Shown here: positions 993 through 62,175 of the stretch, piece after piece
Layout: each line of letters starts with the position of its first letter
Position numbering within the stretch: position 1 is the stretch's first letter
Assembly (NCBI GenBank): GCA_030650025.1
Contig: JAUSEN010000008.1
Location: 1,164 to 65,163 of the forward strand
Source: Candidatus Magasanikiibacteriota bacterium
GTDB taxonomy: Bacteria; Patescibacteriota; Patescibacteriia; Magasanikbacterales; GWA2-37-8
Direction of reading: 5' to 3'
Length of the DNA: 64,000 bases
Program-made: the position numbers and the translations under genes
The notes under the pieces: generated by a model
Databases searched by the model: none
Seen by the model: only the letters and a program-made list of their open reading frames with translations
Told to the model about the DNA's origin: nothing

Positions 993-2342
993 TTATAATA
1001 AACTATCATCCGCCGTCGGTTCTTTTACGCCACGGAAAACAACATCTATAATATTTTGGACGCCAAACTGGCGGCCATCCAAAAACCCACTCATGGCCGC
1101 TTCCGCTAGCCAGCCAGAGTTAACCCAGTCAAACAGCCACTCGGATGTATAACGAGGGTCGTTTTGGCTAATGCCCGCGCCAATGGTTTTAAGCCAAGTG
1201 CGGTTAAACACCTCCTGGCTACCAAGAGACGGCGCCATGATAATAGGAATGCCCAAGGCCGAATAAAACACCAACTCGCTCGGCTTTGTCCACAGGATGT
1301 CGGTCGAACGAAGGCTCTCGTTAAGAGCGCGGAAATAATCTTCTTTCTGAAGAGCAAAAATAATTTGTAAATTTTTCCCAAAAACTTTTTCTAAGCCATA
1401 ATTGCTAATGGCCTCGCGAAAATAACAATAAACATCATTGCGCGTGCCGGCTACTAAATTCACATTTATTTCGTTGGCTAACAATTTTTGACGCAGACTC
1501 CACAGCATCTGGCGGCCAATCTTTTTTTGCGCGCCCGCGCCGCCGACCGCGAAAGCCAAGGTCAGAGGGTGGTGGTGCCGCTCTTCTATTTTTATATTTT
1601 TCAAAAAATTCTTGATTGTCTCCGCGTACTTGTGGCGGTAACGGTGTTCCGGATCTAAATTAATCAAACGCTCGGCCAAATCACGCTGGAGCGTATCAAG
1701 ACCCGAGCCGCCGTCCAAATTTTCTTCTGGGAGAGGGAACCCGGTTAAAAATATATTATCTGGTTTAACGCCATAAAGCTTAAGGCGCTCTACCACCCGC
1801 CGGCACGGCGCCAGATACTTAATCCGGCTCTTTTTAGGGTGGAGCGGCGCCCAGGTACGGCTAATATCCGAATCGCAAATTACTAAATAAATATCGTTTT
1901 TAAAATCATGCTCCTCGGCCATAAAGGCGGCGGTAAAAAAAGTGGTAATCAGGGGAATGTTTTTAGTATTTAAAAGCTTTATTAAATCTTTGCCCGAGCC
2001 GCGTTTAATAATGTAATAATTCTGACGAATTTGCAAATTGGGGGCCGAGAGATCCCGCCGTGGATAAAACGCCGGCACTTCTTGAAATTTGTCCATTAAA
2101 CCAAACAGCCACCCGCCAATGAAGGGCACGTTGGACAGGCGAGAAAAAGTCTCATACAAGCGCTGGGTGGCTTGCCAGCCGCGGTATTCTTTTTTCGAGA
2201 TGCCTTCGTAATTATTGGCGTTAATAACCTTGCCGGTCGGCGATAAATGCCGGAGCGGGTACGCCGCCCGCTGGTGGCCATAACCCATGTCAACCACCAC
2301 CACCCAGGCTTCGTGATTAGAATTTTTCTGCTCCATATTCAT
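993..2342 (-). CDS. GT-B fold glycosyltransferase, MurG/UgtP/MGDG-synthase-like (GT28-type)
   Basis: N-terminal VVVVDMGYGHQRAA (G-x-G-H nucleotide-sugar loop). C-terminal IPIIMAPSLGSQEVFNRTWL resembles the MurG/UgtP C-domain motif. Family call is by motif only. Confidence 0.5.
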   Translation of the reverse strand: MNMEQKNSNHEAWVVVVDMGYGHQRAAYPLRHLSPTGKVINANNYEGISKKEYRGWQATQRLYETFSRLSNVPFIGGWLFGLMDKFQEVPAFYPRRDLSAPNLQIRQNYYIIKRGSGKDLIKLLNTKNIPLITTFFTAAFMAEEHDFKNDIYLVICDSDISRTWAPLHPKKSRIKYLAPCRRVVERLKLYGVKPDNIFLTGFPLPEENLDGGSGLDTLQRDLAERLINLDPEHRYRHKYAETIKNFLKNIKIEERHHHPLTLAFAVGGAGAQKKIGRQMLWSLRQKLLANEINVNLVAGTRNDVYCYFREAISNYGLEKVFGKNLQIIFALQKEDYFRALNESLRSTDILWTKPSELVFYSALGIPIIMAPSLGSQEVFNRTWLKTIGAGISQNDPRYTSEWLFDWVNSGWLAEAAMSGFLDGRQFGVQNIIDVVFRGVKEPTADDSLL

Positions 2343-4032: not shown

Positions 4033-4383
4033 TTAGATAAATTCTATCACGGCTGTCTGGCTGCCATCCCCTTTACGCGGGCCGAGCATGGTCAACCTGG
4101 TGTAGCCGCCTTTCCGATCTTTATAGCGTGGGCCCAAAACTTCCATCAGCTTCTTGACAGCTTTATCAGTATGGAGATCAGCCCGGAGCAGGCGGCGAGC
4201 CGCCAGCGTATTATTCTTGGCCGACGTTACCAGCCTTTCCACTCGGCTCTGCGCGGCTTTCGCTTTCGCCTTGGTAGTTTTAATTTTTTCGTGCAAAATC
4301 AAGCTCTCGGCCAAATTGCGAAGCAAGGCCGTGCGCGGCCCAACCTTCCGATCTAGAGTAATTTTCTTTTTTTGATGCCGCAT
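4033..4383 (-). CDS. rplQ: 50S ribosomal protein L17
   Basis: MRHQKKKITLDRKVGPRTALLRNLAESLILHEKIKTT... matches the L17 N-terminus. Start trimmed to the ATG at 4383; the track ORF extends into the shared leader repeat. Confidence 0.9.
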   Translation of the reverse strand: MRHQKKKITLDRKVGPRTALLRNLAESLILHEKIKTTKAKAKAAQSRVERLVTSAKNNTLAARRLLRADLHTDKAVKKLMEVLGPRYKDRKGGYTRLTMLGPRKGDGSQTAVIEFI

Positions 4384-4430
4384 ACGATTTGACAAAATCG
4401 TGCCGCGCAATGTCCTTTGAAGCGCGGCGC
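4384..4430 (-). promoter_or_regulatory. Conserved two-hairpin 5' leader motif directly abutting the rplQ start codon
   Basis: Minus strand reads GCGCCGCGC-TTCAAAGGACATT-GCGCGGCAC (hairpin 1), then CGATTT-TGTC-AAATCG (hairpin 2), then T-ATG. A near-identical copy is upstream of rpsM and a compensated copy upstream of mraZ. TAAATTAAATAAT lies just 5'. Confidence 0.5.
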
Positions 4431-6406: not shown

Positions 6407-6793
6407 TTAAGTTTTTTGCCCGTCGGGTTTGCGGCCGCTACCCATGGTCTTGCGAACATTGCCCCTAACCGTGCGGGAGTTAGTTTTGGTGCGCTGGCCG
6501 CGAACTGGCAAATGCTTCATGTGGCGAATGCCGCGGTAGCTCTTGGTATCTTTCAAAGTTTTGATATTACTCATTATTTCGCGGCGCAAATCGCCTTCGG
6601 TCTTAAAATTCTTCTCAACATATGCCCGCAGGGTATCTTCTTGTTCATTGGTCAAATCCTTGGTGCGGATATTGCCGTCAATCTTAGTAGCCACTAAGAT
6701 TTTTTTTGCCAGCGTTGCGCCAATGCCAAAAATATAACGCAGTGAAAACTCGATCTTCTTTTCCTCTGGTATGTTAGTACTGGCAATACGCAT
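6407..6793 (-). CDS. rpsM: 30S ribosomal protein S13
   Basis: [25 protein letters not shown]... Start trimmed to the ATG at 6793; the track ORF extends into the leader repeat. Confidence 0.9.
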
Positions 6794-6840
6794 ACGATTT
6801 AACAAAATCGTGCCGCGCAATGTCCTTTGAGGCGCGGCGC
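6794..6840 (-). promoter_or_regulatory. Second copy of the two-hairpin leader motif, abutting the rpsM start
   Basis: GCGCCGCGCC-TCAAAGGACATT-GCGCGGCAC-GATTTTGTTAAATCG-T-ATG. TTAGATTAAATTAA lies immediately 5'. Confidence 0.5.
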
Positions 6841-11878: not shown

Positions 11879-13132
11879 TTATTTAATCACTCCCCCGCCT
11901 AAACACGCCCCGTTATTGTAAAACACCGCGAATTGCCCGGGCGTAACCGCGCGCTCTGGCTTTGCAAAATGAACGATAACGAGATTCCTCGTCGGCCTTC
12001 GGCCTCGCTCGGAATGACAACGAACAATGCACTCCTGCAATATCTGGCGATGGCGTAGGCGTACCTGGCATTTTAACGGAAATTGAGGTTTCTGACAAAT
12101 CCAATTAACGCCCGTAACCACAGCTTCTTTGGAAAACAAAAGCAGGTCATCTTCATAGCCAACAACCAATTCATTGGTTCTAATATTTTTAGCGACCACA
12201 TACAAAGGCCGATTCCCCTCTCCTTCGCAAAGGAGAGGGCGAGGGTGAGGACTCGCCAATCCCAAATGCCTCTGACCAATCGTATAAAACGCCAGACCAT
12301 CGTGTTTACCGACAACAATTCGCTGTAGGGGCGGGGTTACCCCGCCCTTACCGTACGACATTATAATCTTTCCCGGTTTATGTTTTATTCTTTTCTCCAA
12401 AAATTCTTTCATCGGCACTTCGCCAATAAAACAAATGCCCATGCTCTCGGCTTTATCCGCGACTGGCAAGCCAAATTTCTTAGCTAATTTCCTGACTTCT
12501 GGCTTAGTATATTCGCCCACGGGAAATAGAGTTTTAGATAACTGCTTCTGGTTTAGCTGGTGCAAAAAATATGTTTGGTCTTTATTTTTGTCTTTGGCTT
12601 CGAGAAGATGAACCAGACCTCCCCCAAACCCCTCCTTTGCGAAGGAGGGGGGTCGAGCTCCCTCTCCATCGCAATGGAGAGGGCGGGGGGTGAGGACTCG
12701 TCTCGCATAATGCCCGGTCGCCAAATAATCAAAACCCAATTCTTCTGCCTTTTTCAGCCAACTCCCAAATTTAATAAATTTATTGCACATCACATCCGGG
12801 TTCGGCGTCCGCCCCTGCCGGTATTCCGCGAACATGTAATCCAAAACATCGCGTTTATATTCTTTAACAAAATTCAGTTTCAAAATCGGAATATTTAATT
12901 GCGCGGCCACGCGCACAGCGTCGCGGTAATCCGGAACATAACAAGACTGCGTCTGTTGTAGTGGCCCGGCATGCCTGGCCACTACGTTTTCGCCGTCATC
13001 ATCGTAATTAATCATAAAAGCCGCCGTGACATTATATCCGGCTTTAACGAGGAGCGCGGCGGCTACGGCCGAGTCCACCCCACCACTAAGCGCCACTAAA
13101 ACTTTTATTTTTTTATTAAACTTTATTTTCAC
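11879..13132 (-). CDS. mnmA: tRNA 2-thiouridine(34) synthase MnmA carrying four in-frame palindromic-element insertions
   Basis: PP-loop SGGVDSAV, ...LATGHYARR..., KDQTYFL, YTIGQR, TPGQFAVFY. At 417 aa it is about 50 aa longer than canonical MnmA. The extra segments map exactly onto DNA palindromes; see findings. Confidence 0.9.
   Translation of the reverse strand: MKIKFNKKIKVLVALSGGVDSAVAAALLVKAGYNVTAAFMINYDDDGENVVARHAGPLQQTQSCYVPDYRDAVRVAAQLNIPILKLNFVKEYKRDVLDYMFAEYRQGRTPNPDVMCNKFIKFGSWLKKAEELGFDYLATGHYARRVLTPRPLHCDGEGARPPSFAKEGFGGGLVHLLEAKDKNKDQTYFLHQLNQKQLSKTLFPVGEYTKPEVRKLAKKFGLPVADKAESMGICFIGEVPMKEFLEKRIKHKPGKIIMSYGKGGVTPPLQRIVVGKHDGLAFYTIGQRHLGLASPHPRPLLCEGEGNRPLYVVAKNIRTNELVVGYEDDLLLFSKEAVVTGVNWICQKPQFPLKCQVRLRHRQILQECIVRCHSERGRRPTRNLVIVHFAKPERAVTPGQFAVFYNNGACLGGGVIK
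11981..12019. repeat. Half MITE-like element (GAGATTCCTCGTCGG-CCTTCGG-CCTCGCTCGGAATGACA) in-frame inside mnmA
   Basis: Encodes CHSERGRRPTRNL in MnmA. A reverse-complement copy is at 15666-15704, and an intergenic copy within 21090-21193. Confidence 0.6.
12215..12257. repeat. Palindrome CCCCTCTCCTTCGCAAAGGAGAGGG plus CGAGGGTGAGGACTCG tail, in-frame inside mnmA
   Basis: Encodes ...SPHPRPLLCEGEGNRPL.... A second, duplicated copy is at 12628-12704. Confidence 0.6.
12321..12344. repeat. Palindrome AGGGGCGGGGTAACCCCGCCC(C)T in-frame inside mnmA; identical in sequence to the intergenic terminator hairpin at 62143-62175
   Basis: Encodes GKGGVTPPLQ, inserted just before the conserved ...HDGLAFYTIGQR. 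Confidence 0.6.
12628..12704. repeat. Tandem palindromes CCCCTCCTTTGCGAAGGAGGGG and CCCTCTCCATCGCAATGGAGAGGG plus CGGGGGGTGAGGACTCG tail, in-frame inside mnmA
   Basis: Encodes RPLHCDGEGARPPSFAKEGFGGG, inserted between the conserved GHYARR and LLEAKDKNKDQTYFL. Confidence 0.6.
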
Positions 13133-14964: not shown

Positions 14965-16032
14965 TTAATTAGTAGTTCGATTTAAAGTCGTAATCGGCCG
15001 GCTCTGGGTGATATAAAATTTACTCCCGACTTTGGCCCATTCAATATCACAGGGGAAGCCATAATGCTTCTCAATATTTATAAAAATCTTAGCCGCTTCG
15101 ATAATTTCTTTGCCCGATAATTTTTGTTTTGTCCCTTCGCTCTCGCTAATATTTCCCCACTCATTGCGCTTCCCCTCTCCGCTATCTACTAACAAATCGC
15201 TTTTGGCGGAACGCGCCAACGCGTTCCCTACAAGTTTTTTTCCTACTAATTTTCGGGTCTGCGTCGCCACATTAATATCAAGAATGCTAAGCTCTGATTT
15301 ACTAACAATATAACTATCAGGAGTAATCTGACCGCCCACAATCGCTTCACCGAGGCCAAAACCGGCTTCTATTATCATCTGATCTCTGTCTTCGGTAACC
15401 GGATGCACGGTAAAAGCAATGCCTGACACTTCAGACTGTACCATAGTTTGCACTACCACCGCAACCGAAACATAGTGGTCGATTAAGTTCTTCTCGTGGC
15501 GGTAAAAAATTGCCCGAGGTGTGAATAGCGAAGACCAGCACTCTTTAACCCGCTCTACTACCTGCTCGGCTGGCGTATTTAAATATGTTTCCAGTTCCCC
15601 GGCCCAGCTCGCGACCGCCGAATCCTCCGCCGTCGCACTGCTCCGGACCGCCACCAAAAAATCATTGTCATTCCGAGCGAGGCCGGAGGCCGACGAGGAA
15701 TCTCCCGAAAGTTTAGCATGAGCTGCCAAAATTTCTACTTCTAAATCTTTGGGCATGGCATGGTCGTGAATCGCGTCCCGAATCACCGCGCTCGCTTTAT
15801 CAATCGAATTTACATCCGCCACGTTCACCTCTTTGAGCCGCGCACTAATTTCAGCATTCAAATCAGTTTCTTCTAAAAATCTATCAAAGGCGCTTGCGAG
15901 CACCACAAACCCGGGCGGGACAGGAATCCCGGTATTCGCCATCTCACCCAAACTGGCGCCTTTGCCACCCGCCTCGGCGACATTGTTTTTAGAAATTTCA
16001 TTGAAGAATTTTAGATGGGGCATACAACTCAA
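14965..16032 (-). CDS. PEP/pyruvate-binding (PPDK_N-type ATP-grasp nucleotide-binding) domain protein with an in-frame MITE insertion
   Basis: GGKGASLGEM ... GIPVPPGFVV ... FLVAVRSSATAED ... AG. The inserted segment SGDSSSASGLARNDND is encoded by the element at 15666-15704. Confidence 0.75.
   Translation of the reverse strand: MSCMPHLKFFNEISKNNVAEAGGKGASLGEMANTGIPVPPGFVVLASAFDRFLEETDLNAEISARLKEVNVADVNSIDKASAVIRDAIHDHAMPKDLEVEILAAHAKLSGDSSSASGLARNDNDFLVAVRSSATAEDSAVASWAGELETYLNTPAEQVVERVKECWSSLFTPRAIFYRHEKNLIDHYVSVAVVVQTMVQSEVSGIAFTVHPVTEDRDQMIIEAGFGLGEAIVGGQITPDSYIVSKSELSILDINVATQTRKLVGKKLVGNALARSAKSDLLVDSGEGKRNEWGNISESEGTKQKLSGKEIIEAAKIFINIEKHYGFPCDIEWAKVGSKFYITQSRPITTLNRTTN
15666..15704. 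repeat. Half MITE-like element (TGTCATTCCGAGCGAGGCCGGAGGCCGACGAGGAATCTC) in-frame inside the PPDK_N gene
   Basis: Reverse complement of the 11981-12019 family. Encodes SGDSSSASGLARNDND immediately before the conserved FLVAVRSSATAED. Confidence 0.6.
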
Positions 16033-21089: not shown

Positions 21090-21193
21090 TGTCATTTCGA
21101 CCCCGCCTCTGGCGGGGAGAAATCTCTATCACAATTGTGAAATGGACAGAGATTCCTCGTCGGTCGCCATAGGCGACCTCGCTCGGAATGACA
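21090..21193. mobile_element. About 104-bp MITE-like element with TGTCATT...AATGACA termini and two internal GC hairpins
   Basis: tgtcatttcgaCCCCGCCtctgGCGGGGagaaatctct...gagattcctcgtcGGTCGCCataGGCGACCtcgctcggaatgaca. Intergenic, between the coupling-ATPase and AMMECR1 genes. Confidence 0.55.
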
Positions 21194-21197
21194 GCGC

Positions 21198-21773
21198 CTA
21201 ATCTTCAGAGAATACTTCTACCTGGTAAGTATAAACCGTGAGCCCTGGTTTTTTCCACTCCTCCGGTTCCAAACCTGCCTTCATACAAAGCGCCGTCAAA
21301 AAATTGCTTTTCTCGAGCATTTCATCCCAGACTTGGGGCAGAAACGTCGCGTTCTTCTCCCCTCTTTCCACCACCACGCCGTCCACCCCCACTCGGAGTT
21401 TATTAAACAAATCTTCCGGGGAATCAAACTCCAAAACTTTCGGATCGGTCAAAACCGAAATTTCAATATTGACATCTGGCAGTTCCTCTTTAGTAACCGG
21501 AAAAAATCGCGAATCCTCAAACGCCGCCGCGTAAGCATTTTCTAAAATATCCAAATACAGCGGACGCCGCGCCTCTAAACTGCCCATACACCCTCTTAAT
21601 TCCACTAAATCTTTTTTAAGCGTCACAAAACACGCCCGCTTGATTTTTACGCTCTCCCCGCTCGCCTCGATCTCGCTCTCTTTAAGTTTCAATTTTTTTC
21701 CAGTTTCTAAAAAATGCGCAATACTCTCGCGCGCTAATTTTAAAAGCCAGGTTTGTTCTTCCCGAGTAAACAT
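21198..21773 (-). CDS. AMMECR1-domain protein
   Basis: ...RACFVTLKKDLVELRGCMGS... is the AMMECR1 signature. Confidence 0.8.
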   Translation of the reverse strand: MFTREEQTWLLKLARESIAHFLETGKKLKLKESEIEASGESVKIKRACFVTLKKDLVELRGCMGSLEARRPLYLDILENAYAAAFEDSRFFPVTKEELPDVNIEISVLTDPKVLEFDSPEDLFNKLRVGVDGVVVERGEKNATFLPQVWDEMLEKSNFLTALCMKAGLEPEEWKKPGLTVYTYQVEVFSED

Positions 21774-28787: not shown

Positions 28788-28817
28788 AGTAGGGGCATGA
28801 TATATCATGCCCCTACT
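28788..28817. repeat. Perfect 30-nt palindrome AGTAGGGGCATGATATATCATGCCCCTACT
   Basis: Core GGGGCATGATATATCATGCCCC is identical to 37239-37260. No flanking T-run on either strand here. Confidence 0.6.
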
Positions 28818-36515: not shown

Positions 36516-36965
36516 CTAAACTCCTAGTTCCGCCATTTTTTCCGCGATCGCGTTGCTTTCAGCCTCGGTACGGCTCTTATAATGTTCCCACTCGGGTTTA
36601 GCCCAAATTTCTAAGCGGCTGTACAGCCCGGCAATAACTACTTCTTTTTTTAAACCGGCAAAAACTCGCAAATATTCCGGGAGCATGGCGCGACCCTGCT
36701 TATCAATCGGGATATCCATGGCGCCCGCTAGCATTAAACGCGCAAACGCGCGGCTATTAGCTTGAGCCATAGGGAGTGCGGCCAATTTCTCGGCGAGCTT
36801 ACCCCACTCGGCCTTGGTGAAAACAAACAAGCAATTATCAAGACCGCGGGTCACCACTGCCCCTTTTTTTAAGTCATTCCGGAATTTGGCGGGCAGGGCC
36901 ACACGCCCTTTATCGTCTAGCGTGTGCGAAAATTCTCCTATGAACATATGAATTGACGAATTCAT
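36516..36965 (-). CDS. mraZ: Transcriptional regulator MraZ
   Basis: Two MraZ repeats: ...MFIGEFSHTLDDKGRVALPAKFR... and ...DKQGRAMLPEYLR.... Start at the first ATG after the leader hairpin (36965). An alternative ATG at 36947 gives the canonical MFIGEF N-terminus. Confidence 0.85.
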   Translation of the reverse strand: MNSSIHMFIGEFSHTLDDKGRVALPAKFRNDLKKGAVVTRGLDNCLFVFTKAEWGKLAEKLAALPMAQANSRAFARLMLAGAMDIPIDKQGRAMLPEYLRVFAGLKKEVVIAGLYSRLEIWAKPEWEHYKSRTEAESNAIAEKMAELGV

Positions 36966-37036
36966 GCCCGATTCAACAGAATCGTGCCGAGCAGTGTCCT
37001 TTGAAGCTCGGCTCGCATTCCTTTGAAGCGCGGCGC
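36966..37036 (-). promoter_or_regulatory. Third, compensated copy of the two-hairpin leader motif (plus a partial tandem extra copy) abutting the mraZ start
   Basis: Minus strand: GCGCCGCGC-TTCAAAGGAATGCGA-GCCGAGC-TTCAAAGGACACT-GCTCGGC-AC-GATTCTGTTGAATCG-GGC-ATG. Stem 1 is GCCGAGC/GCTCGGC here versus GCGCCGCGC/GCGCGGCAC at rplQ and rpsM. The loop is conserved. Confidence 0.5.
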
Positions 37037-37234
37037 TAGTGAGTAAAGTAGTAAGACAAGCATTTTCACCACTCTTCCCCACTTATAACCATTTTACACC
37101 ACTTAAAAACACTAGTCAACACTTAAAACCAGAGTTATCCACAGTCCTTCGGTCGCCTAAGGCGACCTTCGGACTGCAAGCGCTTTTTTGCGTGTCTAAG
37201 ACGAATAATATGCGCAGACGATAAAATAAAAAAA

Positions 37235-37260
37235 CAGGGGCATGATATATCATGCCCCTG
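37235..37260. terminator. Bidirectional intrinsic terminator (CAGGGGCATGATATATCATGCCCCTG) downstream of the MBL-fold gene
   Basis: Perfect palindrome flanked by AAAAAAA 5' and TGAATTTTTTTATT 3'. The minus strand reads hairpin plus TGTTTTTTTATTTT. Confidence 0.7.
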
Positions 37261-37296: not shown

Positions 37297-38715
37297 TTAG
37301 ACCCTAACCTCTAAGCCCACGTTTACCACTGTGGCTTTCACCCCCAAATCCTCGGTTATTCTTTTGGCGAGAGCTTCCGAAGCCACCGGGTCGCCGTGGT
37401 TTAAATAAACCTTTTTTGGAGTCGTAGCGCCTCCGCCAATCCAATCAAGGAGTTTATCCTGATCGCCGTGCGCGGACAGCGCTCCCACCATTTTTACTTT
37501 GCATCTTACCTCGACTCTCTCGCCAAGTATGTCTACAAAACGCTGGCCGTCCACAATTTTCCGCCCCAGCGTCCCTGCGGACTGGTAGCCAATGATGAGC
37601 AAAGTATTTTTGGGGTCTGACAAATAGCGCAGAGCGTGGAACACAATGCGCCCGCCGTTCATCATACCCGCGCCCGCGATAATAATTTTACAACCCGGCG
37701 TGTGGTTAATCTTCATGGATTCTTCGCGCAAATGAGTGAGCGTGAGGCCGGGAAAATTAAATAAATCATCGCCCGCTTTAAAATATTTAGCGGCTTCAGC
37801 GTCGTAATACTCGGGATATTTTTCGTAAACTTTAATAGCATCAATTGCCAAAGGCGAATCTAAAAAAATCGGAACCCGAGGCAGTTTCTTCTTACGGTCA
37901 ATCAAATCATTTAATTCATATAATAACTCTTGAGTGCGCTCGAGCGAAAAAGACGGAATCATAACCACGCCACCCCGCTCTATCCCCTCGCGAATCATAT
38001 TTTCGATTACTTCTTGCCGCTCGTGCACACTCTCGTGCAAGCGATTGCCATATGTCGATTCGCAAATCAGGGCGTCTAGCCCCCCGGGCAATTTTTCGGT
38101 ATCACGGAGTATCGGCACCTCAACGTTGCCGACGTCCCCACTAAACACAATTCGCTTCCCCTCACCGGCAATTTCAATAAACGCCGAACCAAAAATATGC
38201 CCCGCGTCGTGAAACTTAACGACAACCTCACCACTAGTGTCATTCCCGCGTAAGCGGGAATCTAACTCTCTTGACTTCAAGATCCCCGCTTTCGCGGGGA
38301 TGACAATCTCCTCTCCATATTCCACTCCCACAAACATGCTCATCACGCTAGCGATGTCGCTCTCTGCATACAAAATTGGCGTCTTTAATTTGCGATTGTT
38401 ATAAGTCATGACGTTGAGCGCGTCGTCCAAAATTAGCTGCGCCAGCTCCACGGTTGGTTTGGTCGCGTAAATCTTGCCCGCAAAACCATTTTTCGTTAAG
38501 AGCGGCAAACGCCCCACGTGGTCCAAATGCGCGTGGGTCACAAACACGGCCGCGATGGCTTTGTGATCATACCCGAGCGGTTCTGAATTTCTCTTCTCAA
38601 TTTCCGGACTGCCCTGATGCAGGCCACAATCAACCAAAAACTTCTGGCCGCCAACCTCAATCATACTATTAGAACCCGTCACTTCCCGCGCCGCCCCAAA
38701 AAACGTAATTTTCAT
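37297..38715 (-). CDS. MBL-fold metallo-hydrolase (beta-CASP / RNA-metabolising type) with an in-frame MITE insertion
   Basis: HxHxDH motif VFVTHAHLDHVGRLP; ...FHDAGHIFGSAFIEI.... The inserted segment IPAKAGILKSRELDSRLRGNDTSGE is encoded by the element at 38239-38305. Confidence 0.75.
   Translation of the reverse strand: MKITFFGAAREVTGSNSMIEVGGQKFLVDCGLHQGSPEIEKRNSEPLGYDHKAIAAVFVTHAHLDHVGRLPLLTKNGFAGKIYATKPTVELAQLILDDALNVMTYNNRKLKTPILYAESDIASVMSMFVGVEYGEEIVIPAKAGILKSRELDSRLRGNDTSGEVVVKFHDAGHIFGSAFIEIAGEGKRIVFSGDVGNVEVPILRDTEKLPGGLDALICESTYGNRLHESVHERQEVIENMIREGIERGGVVMIPSFSLERTQELLYELNDLIDRKKKLPRVPIFLDSPLAIDAIKVYEKYPEYYDAEAAKYFKAGDDLFNFPGLTLTHLREESMKINHTPGCKIIIAGAGMMNGGRIVFHALRYLSDPKNTLLIIGYQSAGTLGRKIVDGQRFVDILGERVEVRCKVKMVGALSAHGDQDKLLDWIGGGATTPKKVYLNHGDPVASEALAKRITEDLGVKATVVNVGLEVRV
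38239..38305. repeat. Complete ~67-bp MITE-like element (TGTCATTCCCGCGTAAGCGGGAATC...GATCCCCGCTTTCGCGGGGATGACA) inserted inside the MBL-fold CDS
   Basis: TGTCAT/ATGACA termini. Two internal hairpins: ATTCCCGCgtaaGCGGGAAT and ATCCCCGCtttcGCGGGGAT. The host ORF remains open. Confidence 0.6.
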
Positions 38716-38976
38716 GTAAATCTTCGTTATTTAATCTAAAAAATAAACTTAACTCTATATATTAGAGCTCTTTGAATATTATACCAACCGCCATCTCAAA
38801 ACACAATTCGAAACACCTCCTCAAGCCGCCCAGTGTGCATAACTTCACACGTATGTACTTTACGCATAATCCTGTCATCTTGAGCGTAGCGAAAGATCTA
38901 AGCGTTTTATATTTTGGCGAATTGACTTAGATAAACTTAAATCAAGTGATAATTCTGCTATGAGAAATCCATACCG

Positions 38977-61728: not shown

Positions 61729-62133
61729 ATGAAGTTGACAACTTTCACGGACGGCGGCGCCCGCGGCAACCCCGGGCCAGCCGCTCTCGGCGTCGTTATT
61801 AAAAATGAATCTGGCGTCATTCTCTCCGCCTATGGCGAATATTTGGGCTCCCAAACTAATAACTTTGCCGAATATAGCGCTCTGCTCTCGGCCTTAAACC
61901 GGGCGCACCAGCTGGGCGCTACCGAGGTGGCTTGCGTATTGGACAGCGAACTCATCGTCAAGCAAATGAACAGAATATACAAAGTAAAAGAACCCACGCT
62001 CCAAAAATTATTTATTCAGGTTTATAACGCCGCCGCCAAATTTAAACGCGTCTCTTATCGCCATATATTGCGCGCCGGTAATTACGAAGCCGACGCTGAA
62101 GTCAACAAAGCTATCGATAATCATGTAAAATAA
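61729..62133 (+). CDS. RNase H-like (ribonuclease HI family, short type)
   Basis: TDGGARGNPGPAALGVV (D); NNFAEYSALLSAL (E); ...VLDSELIVKQ (D); ...NYEADAEVNKAID (D). Confidence 0.75.
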   Translation: MKLTTFTDGGARGNPGPAALGVVIKNESGVILSAYGEYLGSQTNNFAEYSALLSALNRAHQLGATEVACVLDSELIVKQMNRIYKVKEPTLQKLFIQVYNAAAKFKRVSYRHILRAGNYEADAEVNKAIDNHVK

Positions 62134-62142
62134 ATATAGGGG

Positions 62143-62175
62143 CGGGGTTACCCCGCCCCTATATTTATTTTAAAA
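62143..62175. terminator. Bidirectional intrinsic terminator between rnh-like (+) and metK (-)
   Basis: TAGGGGCGGGGTTACCCCGCCCCTA followed by TATTTATTTT. The same palindrome occurs inside mnmA at 12321-12344. Confidence 0.7.

Follow-up and report, generated by a model that had tools for sequence, protein, structure and literature searches.

A head-to-head dimer of TGTC-tagged hairpin repeats lies in frame in a beta-CASP RNase gene of a Patescibacteria genome

The closest described relatives of the element that concerns us here are short palindromic repeats that have been reported under several names. The ‘CGTC-tagged REPs’ (repetitive extragenic palindromes) of Di Nocera, De Gregorio and Rocco (2013, BMC Genomics 14:522, PMC3733652) often carry TGTC as their tag (the variants being TGTC and CCTC), have stems of 8–9 bp that begin with A-T pairs and loops of 4–5 nucleotides (nt), and occur mainly as head-to-head (HH) dimers. 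Among them, CGTC-1 corresponds to dRS3 and to RPE-6 of R. conorii, and CGTC-4 to RPE-4; when intragenic, as in the Rickettsia palindromic elements (RPEs), such dimers encode 20–30 residues (PMC3733652). The same work states that CGTC REPs ‘lack a dedicated transposase’ and do not flank genes for REP-associated tyrosine transposases (RAYTs), and that REPs have often been proposed to work at the RNA level. Here we describe a repeat of this kind in a 64,000-nt stretch of DNA, called the window below, from a Candidatus Magasanikiibacteriota bacterium (Patescibacteriota; contig JAUSEN010000008.1 of assembly GCA_030650025.1): a complete 68-nt HH dimer, its tags pointing outward, that lies in frame within the gene for a beta-CASP RNase.

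The same motif has also been studied as the target of a nuclease. The Neisseria NTS, CGTCATTCCCGCGMAVGCGGGAATCYRG, is 28 nt long and contains dRS3, and a broader Ssn-related motif (SRM) has been defined around it (Chenal et al. 2025, Nat Commun 16:2388, PMC11893778). The GIY-YIG enzyme SsnA binds the NTS hairpin in single-stranded DNA (ssDNA) only, does not bind RNA, and cuts just upstream of the hairpin; cleavage needs the three bases (GTC) before the palindrome, binding needs the C after it, and a changed or extended loop is tolerated (PMC11893778). The repeat type in the window is therefore not new as such: it is the already classified TGTC variant of a CGTC-tagged REP in HH form (PMC3733652), built on the same motif as dRS3/NTS and the SRM (PMC11893778).

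The element occupies positions 38238–38305 and reads TGTCATTCCCGCGTAAGCGGGAATC-TAACTCTCTTGACTTCAA-GATCCCCGCTTTCGCGGGGATGACA, that is, TGTCAT, an 8-bp hairpin, ATC, an 18-nt spacer, GAT, a second 8-bp hairpin and ATGACA, with ...GAGGAGAT(T) on one side and (A)CTAGTGG... on the other (here and below, no strand is assigned to doublets or to the spacer). An earlier note on this DNA had placed it at 38239–38305; the end and the sequence quoted there are exact, and the start was one base late. In the left arm (38238–38262, plus strand) the TGTC tag at 38238–38241 is followed by a stem in which 38242–38249 pair with 38254–38261, a GTAA loop at 38250–38253 and a 3′ C at 38262. The right arm (38281–38305, minus strand), which reads TGTCATCCCCGCGAAAGCGGGGATC on that strand, has an 8-bp stem and a GAAA loop. 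Folded as ssDNA, the left arm (ATTCCCGC/GTAA/GCGGGAAT) yields −9.0 kcal/mol (z = −5.7) and the right arm (ATCCCCGC/GAAA/GCGGGGAT) −9.8 kcal/mol (z = −5.5), with z about −5.6 overall. The TGTCAT/ATGACA termini and the two internal 8-bp stems described in the note are indeed present. In both folds the 5′ TGTC and the 3′ C are unpaired, the stems start A-T/T-A and the loops have 4 nt. The two 25-nt arms are inverted copies of each other that differ at 3 positions, and the whole element can alternatively fold into one long hairpin (−42 kcal/mol as RNA, z = −7.8). The pattern TGTCAT-N(40–70)-ATGACA has one match in the window, against 0.02 expected in shuffled sequence.

The element is a head-to-head dimer of TGTC-tagged REPs of the CGTC-1 type (dRS3/NTS, SRM, RPE-6), and it fits the description of the CGTC REPs on every point but the CCA tail. 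The window arms share with CGTC-1 the unpaired 5′ TGTC, the 8-bp stem that opens with A-T, the 4-nt loop and the HH form, whereas their tails, C-TAA and C-TTG, agree with the consensus CCA in the first C alone. As regards setting, the spacer measures 18 nt where 20–100 is usual, and the host phylum, Patescibacteria, lies outside the five phyla listed in PMC3733652. The left arm, ATTCCCGCGTAAGCGGGAAT, is exactly ATTCCC-N8-GGGAAT, the form of dRS3, and shares 25 of the 28 positions of the NTS; in the right arm the stem has the variant form ATCCCC/GGGGAT. Likewise, the right arm fits the published SRM expression and the left arm misses it at the last position only. Unlike the NTS and SRM sequences, both arms start with T rather than C and the element is intragenic, and Patescibacteria are not mentioned in the text of PMC11893778. 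The GTC before the palindrome and the C after it, on which SsnA depends, are invariant in all nine window copies, and the hairpins nested within the loops of some arms fit the reported tolerance of loop extensions.

The RPEs (Ogata et al. 2000/2002) offer a parallel for the coding context, as these too are in-frame palindromic repeats in conserved genes, missing from orthologues, that add a surface loop; their host, however, is an intracellular alphaproteobacterium, in contrast to a free-living or episymbiotic member of the Candidate Phyla Radiation (CPR). The exact arm of the window element recurs in Rickettsia and Tisiphia loci, where it lies inside very long open reading frames (ORFs). RPE-1, with a length of about 100–150 bp, is longer than the window element. 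Our findings extend the family that comprises dRS3/NTS/SRM, the CGTC REPs and the RPEs to the CPR. In neither PMC3733652 nor PMC11893778 did we find a Patescibacteria host, in-frame copies at such density in so small a genome, what appears to be recurrent, phase-locked colonisation of a single loop, or a parallel in a CPR genome between the doublet and a hairpin-ssn-hairpin unit, and a literature search on palindromic coding insertions in the CPR or on ‘TGTCAT’ returned nothing specific.

The host gene (37297–38715, minus strand) is an uninterrupted ORF that encodes a 472-residue RNase of the metallo-beta-lactamase (MBL) fold and beta-CASP family, similar to TTHA0252. The earlier note had named an MBL-fold/beta-CASP hydrolase, and this is borne out by Pfam, which recognises Lactamase_B, Beta-Casp and RMMBL (E-values 1e-37 to 5e-14), and by the best solved relative, Thermus TTHA0252 (E = 2e-92). 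The MBL motifs HxHxDH, H and D are all found, as are the beta-CASP and RMMBL domains, and every residue of the catalytic motifs is intact (H61, H63, D65, H66, H173, D194, H416 and H440). Across the insert the ORF reads ...VGVEYGEEIVIPAKAGILKSRELDSRLRGNDTSGEVVVKFHDAGHIFGS..., as the note had it, and in this frame the element contains no stop codon: the minus-strand codons from GTC (38304–38302) to GAC (38241–38239) correspond to V138–D159, 22 codons in all, and the predicted loop is VIPAKAGILKSRELDSRLRGND. An AlphaFold2 model built with 60 homologues (mean pLDDT 88.9, pTM 0.90) superposes on TTHA0252 with a TM-score of 0.93, and its sole poorly predicted stretch, residues 141–160, falls inside the insert, at the tip of a beta-hairpin built by strands 136–139 and 164–170. 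Since the fold and the catalytic motifs are kept, the host gene looks functional, and in this model the insert has the look of a disordered loop that the protein tolerates. No record matched the full 472-residue protein exactly; a partial one from a Logan assembly of another source (P0001) is identical in sequence and contains the insert as well, and because that assembly is independent, an assembly artefact is unlikely.

Comparison with orthologues that lack the insert, which the earlier note had proposed, supports insertion. The distance between the EY and FHD anchors that bracket the loop is 12–13 residues in most of 120 aligned homologues versus 34 in the query, and the loop is shorter than 22 residues in 90 of 121 orthologues, leaving 31 with a long loop. 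The closest relatives without the insert, P0002 and P0003, are 73% and 77% identical to the query outside the loop, and their empty sites consist of a bare turn of 12–13 residues (EYGEPVVVSGGVSATFHD and EYGEEKKINDLSVRFHD). Removal of the 22 codons from GTC to GAC (66 nt) leaves EYGEE-ITSGEVVVK-FHD in the query, which is the length of P0003. The element thus adds a net 22 codons, in frame, where a beta-hairpin of the beta-CASP RNase has its tip, and it is one of at least nine family copies in the 64 kb. For annotation, peptides such as VIPAKAGI and DSRLRGND in CPR proteins are best read as repeat-derived loops and not as conserved motifs.

The same loop carries repeats in other genomes. We retrieved the loci of five long-loop orthologues (L001, L005, L006, L007 and L009), and all five have a TGTCAT...ATGACA doublet at the same beta-hairpin; these beta-CASP doublets range from 56 to 107 nt, have internal hairpins that are unrelated in sequence (one with a nested arm), and sit at offsets from the EY and FHD anchors that differ by several residues. 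Some long-loop orthologues carry a different, GC-rich hairpin family in the same loop. On a neighbour-joining tree the query clusters with empty-site sequences, and the 31 long-loop orthologues require 22 state changes, close to the 27.7 expected if they were placed randomly. All six of the beta-CASP doublets verified at the DNA level are read in one phase, T/GTC/AT. ....AT/GAC/A, which gives V-I-(P or L)...(N or D)-D. Among doublets in other genes the left-end phases vary (12, 9 and 5), and all permitted phases are used. These patterns probably reflect repeated colonisation of the loop, filtered by what the beta-hairpin tolerates, with V-I possibly extending the strand and N-D possibly suiting the turn; as an alternative to such selection, the insertion process itself could have a preference of site or phase.

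Several further features of the doublets in these loci deserve mention. The lepA genes of two related Patescibacteria hold in-frame TGTCAT...ATGACA doublets (L007 4317–4394, 78 nt; L009 6439–6522, 84 nt), and lepA thereby joins the RNase gene as a conserved gene that such repeats have colonised recurrently. These two lengths also dispose of a ‘3n+2 length rule’ that had been drawn from the first eight doublets, as does the variation of phase among genes. Arms with hairpins nested in their loops occur at L005 1239–1345, at L001 1262–1344 and at 21151–21193 of the window, and include a complete TGTC-tagged arm inside another. Tandem G.A/A.G mismatches are present in several stems, in the form ATTCC-GA-GC...GC-GA-GGAAT.

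It is informative to examine where else the arm occurs. The exact arm TGTCATYCCCGCGNNNGCGGGRATC is present in at least 120 genomic stretches from at least 20 phylum-level groups, as judged by record titles, and among the stretches listed are 13 Patescibacteria loci in addition to those from Rickettsia and Tisiphia. Of the 120 listed stretches, 46, from many phyla, contain convergent doublets of the same design, which often lie within long ORFs. Seven of the 120 contain an ORF of about 95 residues of the Ssn-type GIY-YIG kind, assigned to the Ssn family (cd10448) by its size, its flanks and a catalytic spacing, Y-11-Y-47-E, identical to that of SsnA; six of the seven ORFs have convergent arms on both sides, and the seventh, at a contig end, shows one arm. 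A profile made from these ORFs finds thousands of relatives, one of them annotated from a metagenome-assembled genome (MAG) of Candidatus Doudnabacteria, a member of the CPR. There the ssn-type unit lies between grpE and dnaK; one arm stops 4 nt short of the ATG, and the second begins immediately after the stop codon. The earlier note had held the full-length form to be meaningful, and so it is: because convergent arms flank ssn-type genes elsewhere, the doublet in the RNase gene has the two ends of such a unit, with 18 nt where the gene would be. The spacer (38263–38280, TAACTCTCTTGACTTCAA) occupies the position that a gene of about 290 nt takes in the autonomous-looking units, and judging from this arrangement the doublet looks like a gene-less derivative of the hairpin-ssn-hairpin unit.

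Some occurrences of the arm and of GIY-YIG genes fall outside this pattern. The exact arm is also found on at least 120 stretches of viral contigs (IMG/VR, L148–L267), and among those listed seven have Ssn-type GIY-YIG ORFs, several of which adjoin or overlap the arms; viral contigs are a possible route of spread between phyla. A bacterial-type TGTC arm and a doublet lie on contig JAHIPG010000372.1 (L061), which is binned in a Nanoarchaeota MAG and could represent either mis-binning or presence across domains. A group of CPR GIY-YIG proteins (P0121–P0240, beginning MYYVYIL...) was considered as a source of Ssn and set aside, being of the wrong family and not flanked by TGTC hairpins. Members of this family, which is common in Patescibacteria, are embedded in an RNase P RNA gene (L011 4001–4261) and a tRNA gene (L012 4001–4264), and in this the family resembles intron or homing endonucleases.

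Taken as a whole, we think it likely that the element is a TGTC-tagged REP dimer sitting in frame in the beta-CASP loop, that it is the gene-less counterpart of an ssn unit, and that its spread was aided by Ssn. That unit has the form TGTCAT-hairpin / ssn / hairpin-ATGACA, with a GIY-YIG nuclease of about 95 residues that would bind this hairpin in ssDNA and cut just 5′ of the tag. Copies would then probably have spread through ssDNA intermediates with an Ssn-type nuclease supplied in trans, insertion would leave no target duplication, and intragenic copies would persist only where their length, phase and position are tolerated. Several observations weigh against this account. For Ssn, cleavage of ssDNA has been demonstrated and transposition has not (PMC11893778), and we infer mobilisation of the doublets by Ssn from the arrangement of the units. 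No ssn or other GIY-YIG gene was found in the 64-kb window or in ten orthologous CPR loci, which were searched with GIY-YIG sequences and then with two profiles, and a weak test of the window for a Y1 transposase was negative. A second copy of the exact 68-nt doublet or of its spacer was likewise not found, the exact spacer having 0 matches in metagenome_contigs. The exact boundaries of the insertion depend on empty-site orthologues that are about 75% identical. Finally, that the insert is translated into a disordered surface loop is suggested only by the intact open frame.

A more far-reaching version is that the doublets are non-autonomous partners of an unrecognised class of ssDNA mobile elements with Ssn as their ‘transposase’, and that in Patescibacteria they enter, or survive at, the tips of beta-hairpins in one phase and so form a recurrent source of protein loops. 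We regard this version as speculative and rather unlikely to hold in full. If Ssn did act in this way, the many independent colonisations of the beta-CASP loop would amount to a natural experiment. The link between the complete doublet and the hairpin-ssn-hairpin unit bears on the missing ‘dedicated transposase’ of the CGTC REPs, a question that has been open since 2013, and the copies described here are concrete substrates with which mobilisation by Ssn nucleases can be put to the test.

Common descent could instead explain why site and phase are shared, if a single ancient insertion had been kept as a functional loop and repeatedly lost. That the six verified beta-CASP doublets agree in phase and loop, where phases vary in other genes, is what such a history would produce; yet the internal hairpins are unrelated, the lengths span 56–107 nt, the offsets from the anchors shift by several residues, other carriers have a different hairpin family in the same loop, and the loop has no defined structure in the model. 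Moreover, the 31 carriers are scattered on the tree, where their 22 state changes compare with 27.7 for random placement, and we consider descent from one insertion improbable. It is also worth considering that the hairpins are kept for a role in cis, in mRNA or DNA (in stability, in pausing or as a nuclease entry point), with the coding effect incidental. The very stable predicted RNA fold (−42 kcal/mol, z = −7.8), the adjacency of intergenic copies to gene ends and the frequent proposals that REPs act at the RNA level (PMC3733652) speak for such a role, while the lack of the element in most orthologues, the absence of any matching RNA family in a search of the whole window against Rfam at gathering thresholds, and the failure of SsnA to bind RNA (PMC11893778) speak against it, and as a full account we give it little credence. 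A role in cis leaves the origin of the element unexplained and therefore complements, rather than excludes, spread of REP dimers with the help of Ssn.

Two familiar classes of mobile element have also to be weighed. REPINs, which are mobilised by a RAYT, an IS200/IS605-type tyrosine transposase, have the same architecture of two inverted REPs around a short spacer, leave no target duplication and accompany a single-copy gene flanked by repeats (Bertels & Rainey 2011; Nunvar 2010). Their GTAG tag and HUH tyrosine transposase, however, stand against the TGTC/CGTC tag and GIY-YIG nuclease found here; CGTC REPs do not flank RAYT genes (PMC3733652), the flanked gene that was found encodes a GIY-YIG nuclease, and the window gave no Y1 transposase in the weak test described above, all of which makes a REPIN very unlikely. 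The earlier note had read the element as a miniature inverted-repeat transposable element (MITE). A classical MITE, derived from an insertion sequence with a DDE transposase, would account for the terminal inverted repeats, the small size and the multiple copies, but each supposed terminal repeat is a hairpin in its own right that carries a 4-nt tag, arms often occur singly, and the stems vary around a fixed tag. The check for target-site duplications that the note had suggested found none across the flanks of 91 doublets: direct repeats of 2–3 nt are at chance level, flanking repeats of 4–5 nt give 0–2 matches (2 at 5 nt versus 0.1 expected, at one offset), and the only conserved base outside the elements is the T or C that precedes GTCAT. 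No direct repeat flanks the window copy at 38238–38305 either, and no transposase of any known class was linked to the element. Because the 91 doublets lack a target-site duplication, the element is not a classical MITE, an origin to which we would assign almost no weight. The note was right in spirit, since the element is discrete, bounded by inverted repeats, inserted, repeated and probably once mobile, and wrong in class, since it is a TGTC/CGTC-tagged REP dimer and not a MITE of the transposase type.

The remaining copies in the window were found with a search that differs from the published one. The SRM regular expression retrieves one window arm only and is too strict for long-loop and nested copies; we therefore searched for TGTCAT followed by a stem of at least 5 bp and then C, with 200 dinucleotide shuffles as a control. 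Over the 64 kb this gave 11 sites versus 0.2 expected, nine of them clearly genuine half-sites, which make up three HH dimers with their tags outside and three single arms; further TGTCAT...ATGACA copies, for which the earlier note had suggested looking, thus exist. The second complete doublet (2351–2442, 92 nt) is intergenic, just upstream of the start of the ORF at 993–2342 (minus strand), and its arms have different stems. The third (21090–21193, 104 nt), also intergenic, lies directly after the stop codon of the ORF at 21198–21773 (minus strand), and one of its arms contains a nested GGTCGCC..GGCGACC hairpin. As for the single arms, one (11983–12019, minus strand) is in frame in the MnmA gene and encodes ..RCHSERGRRPTRNL.., and another (15666–15702, plus strand), on the antisense strand of the ORF at 14965–16032 (minus strand), is in frame and encodes ..DSSSASGLARNDN..; the latter is 95% complementary to the MnmA arm (repeat I1), and its host ORF is one that we take, by eye, to be a candidate phosphoenolpyruvate-utilising enzyme. 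The third single arm (38873–38898, plus strand) is intergenic; it precedes the beta-CASP start codon by 158 nt and is followed by a degenerate partner. All window copies start with TGTCAT and end with ATC while stems, loops and lengths differ, and several arms have a second hairpin nested within the loop. For tiny CPR genomes, this means that repeats lie inside essential genes, with three genes affected in this window.

The window also contains repeats of other kinds. Compared with solved MnmA structures, the MnmA gene (11879–13132, minus strand) has four or more additional in-frame segments that stem from GC-rich hairpins; they include segments of the CCCTCTCC..GGAGAGGG type at 12207–12245 and 12651–12689, one of the GGGGCGGGGT/ACCCCGCCCC type at 12326–12350 and the TGTC-tagged arm at 11983–12019. 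A direct repeat of 52 nt occurs three times (4379–4430, 6789–6840 and 36963–37014; identities of 96% and 77%), and part of a fourth copy lies at 37019–37047. Among perfect palindromes without a TGTC tag, AGGGGCATGATATATCATGCCCCT occurs twice (28791–28814 and 37236–37259), in one case some 40 nt past the stop codon of the RNase gene; GGTCGCCTAAGGCGACC occurs three times (317–338, 21157–21178 and 37146–37167); and a 23+23-nt palindrome lies at 62126–62172. These untagged palindromes may be terminators or further REP families.

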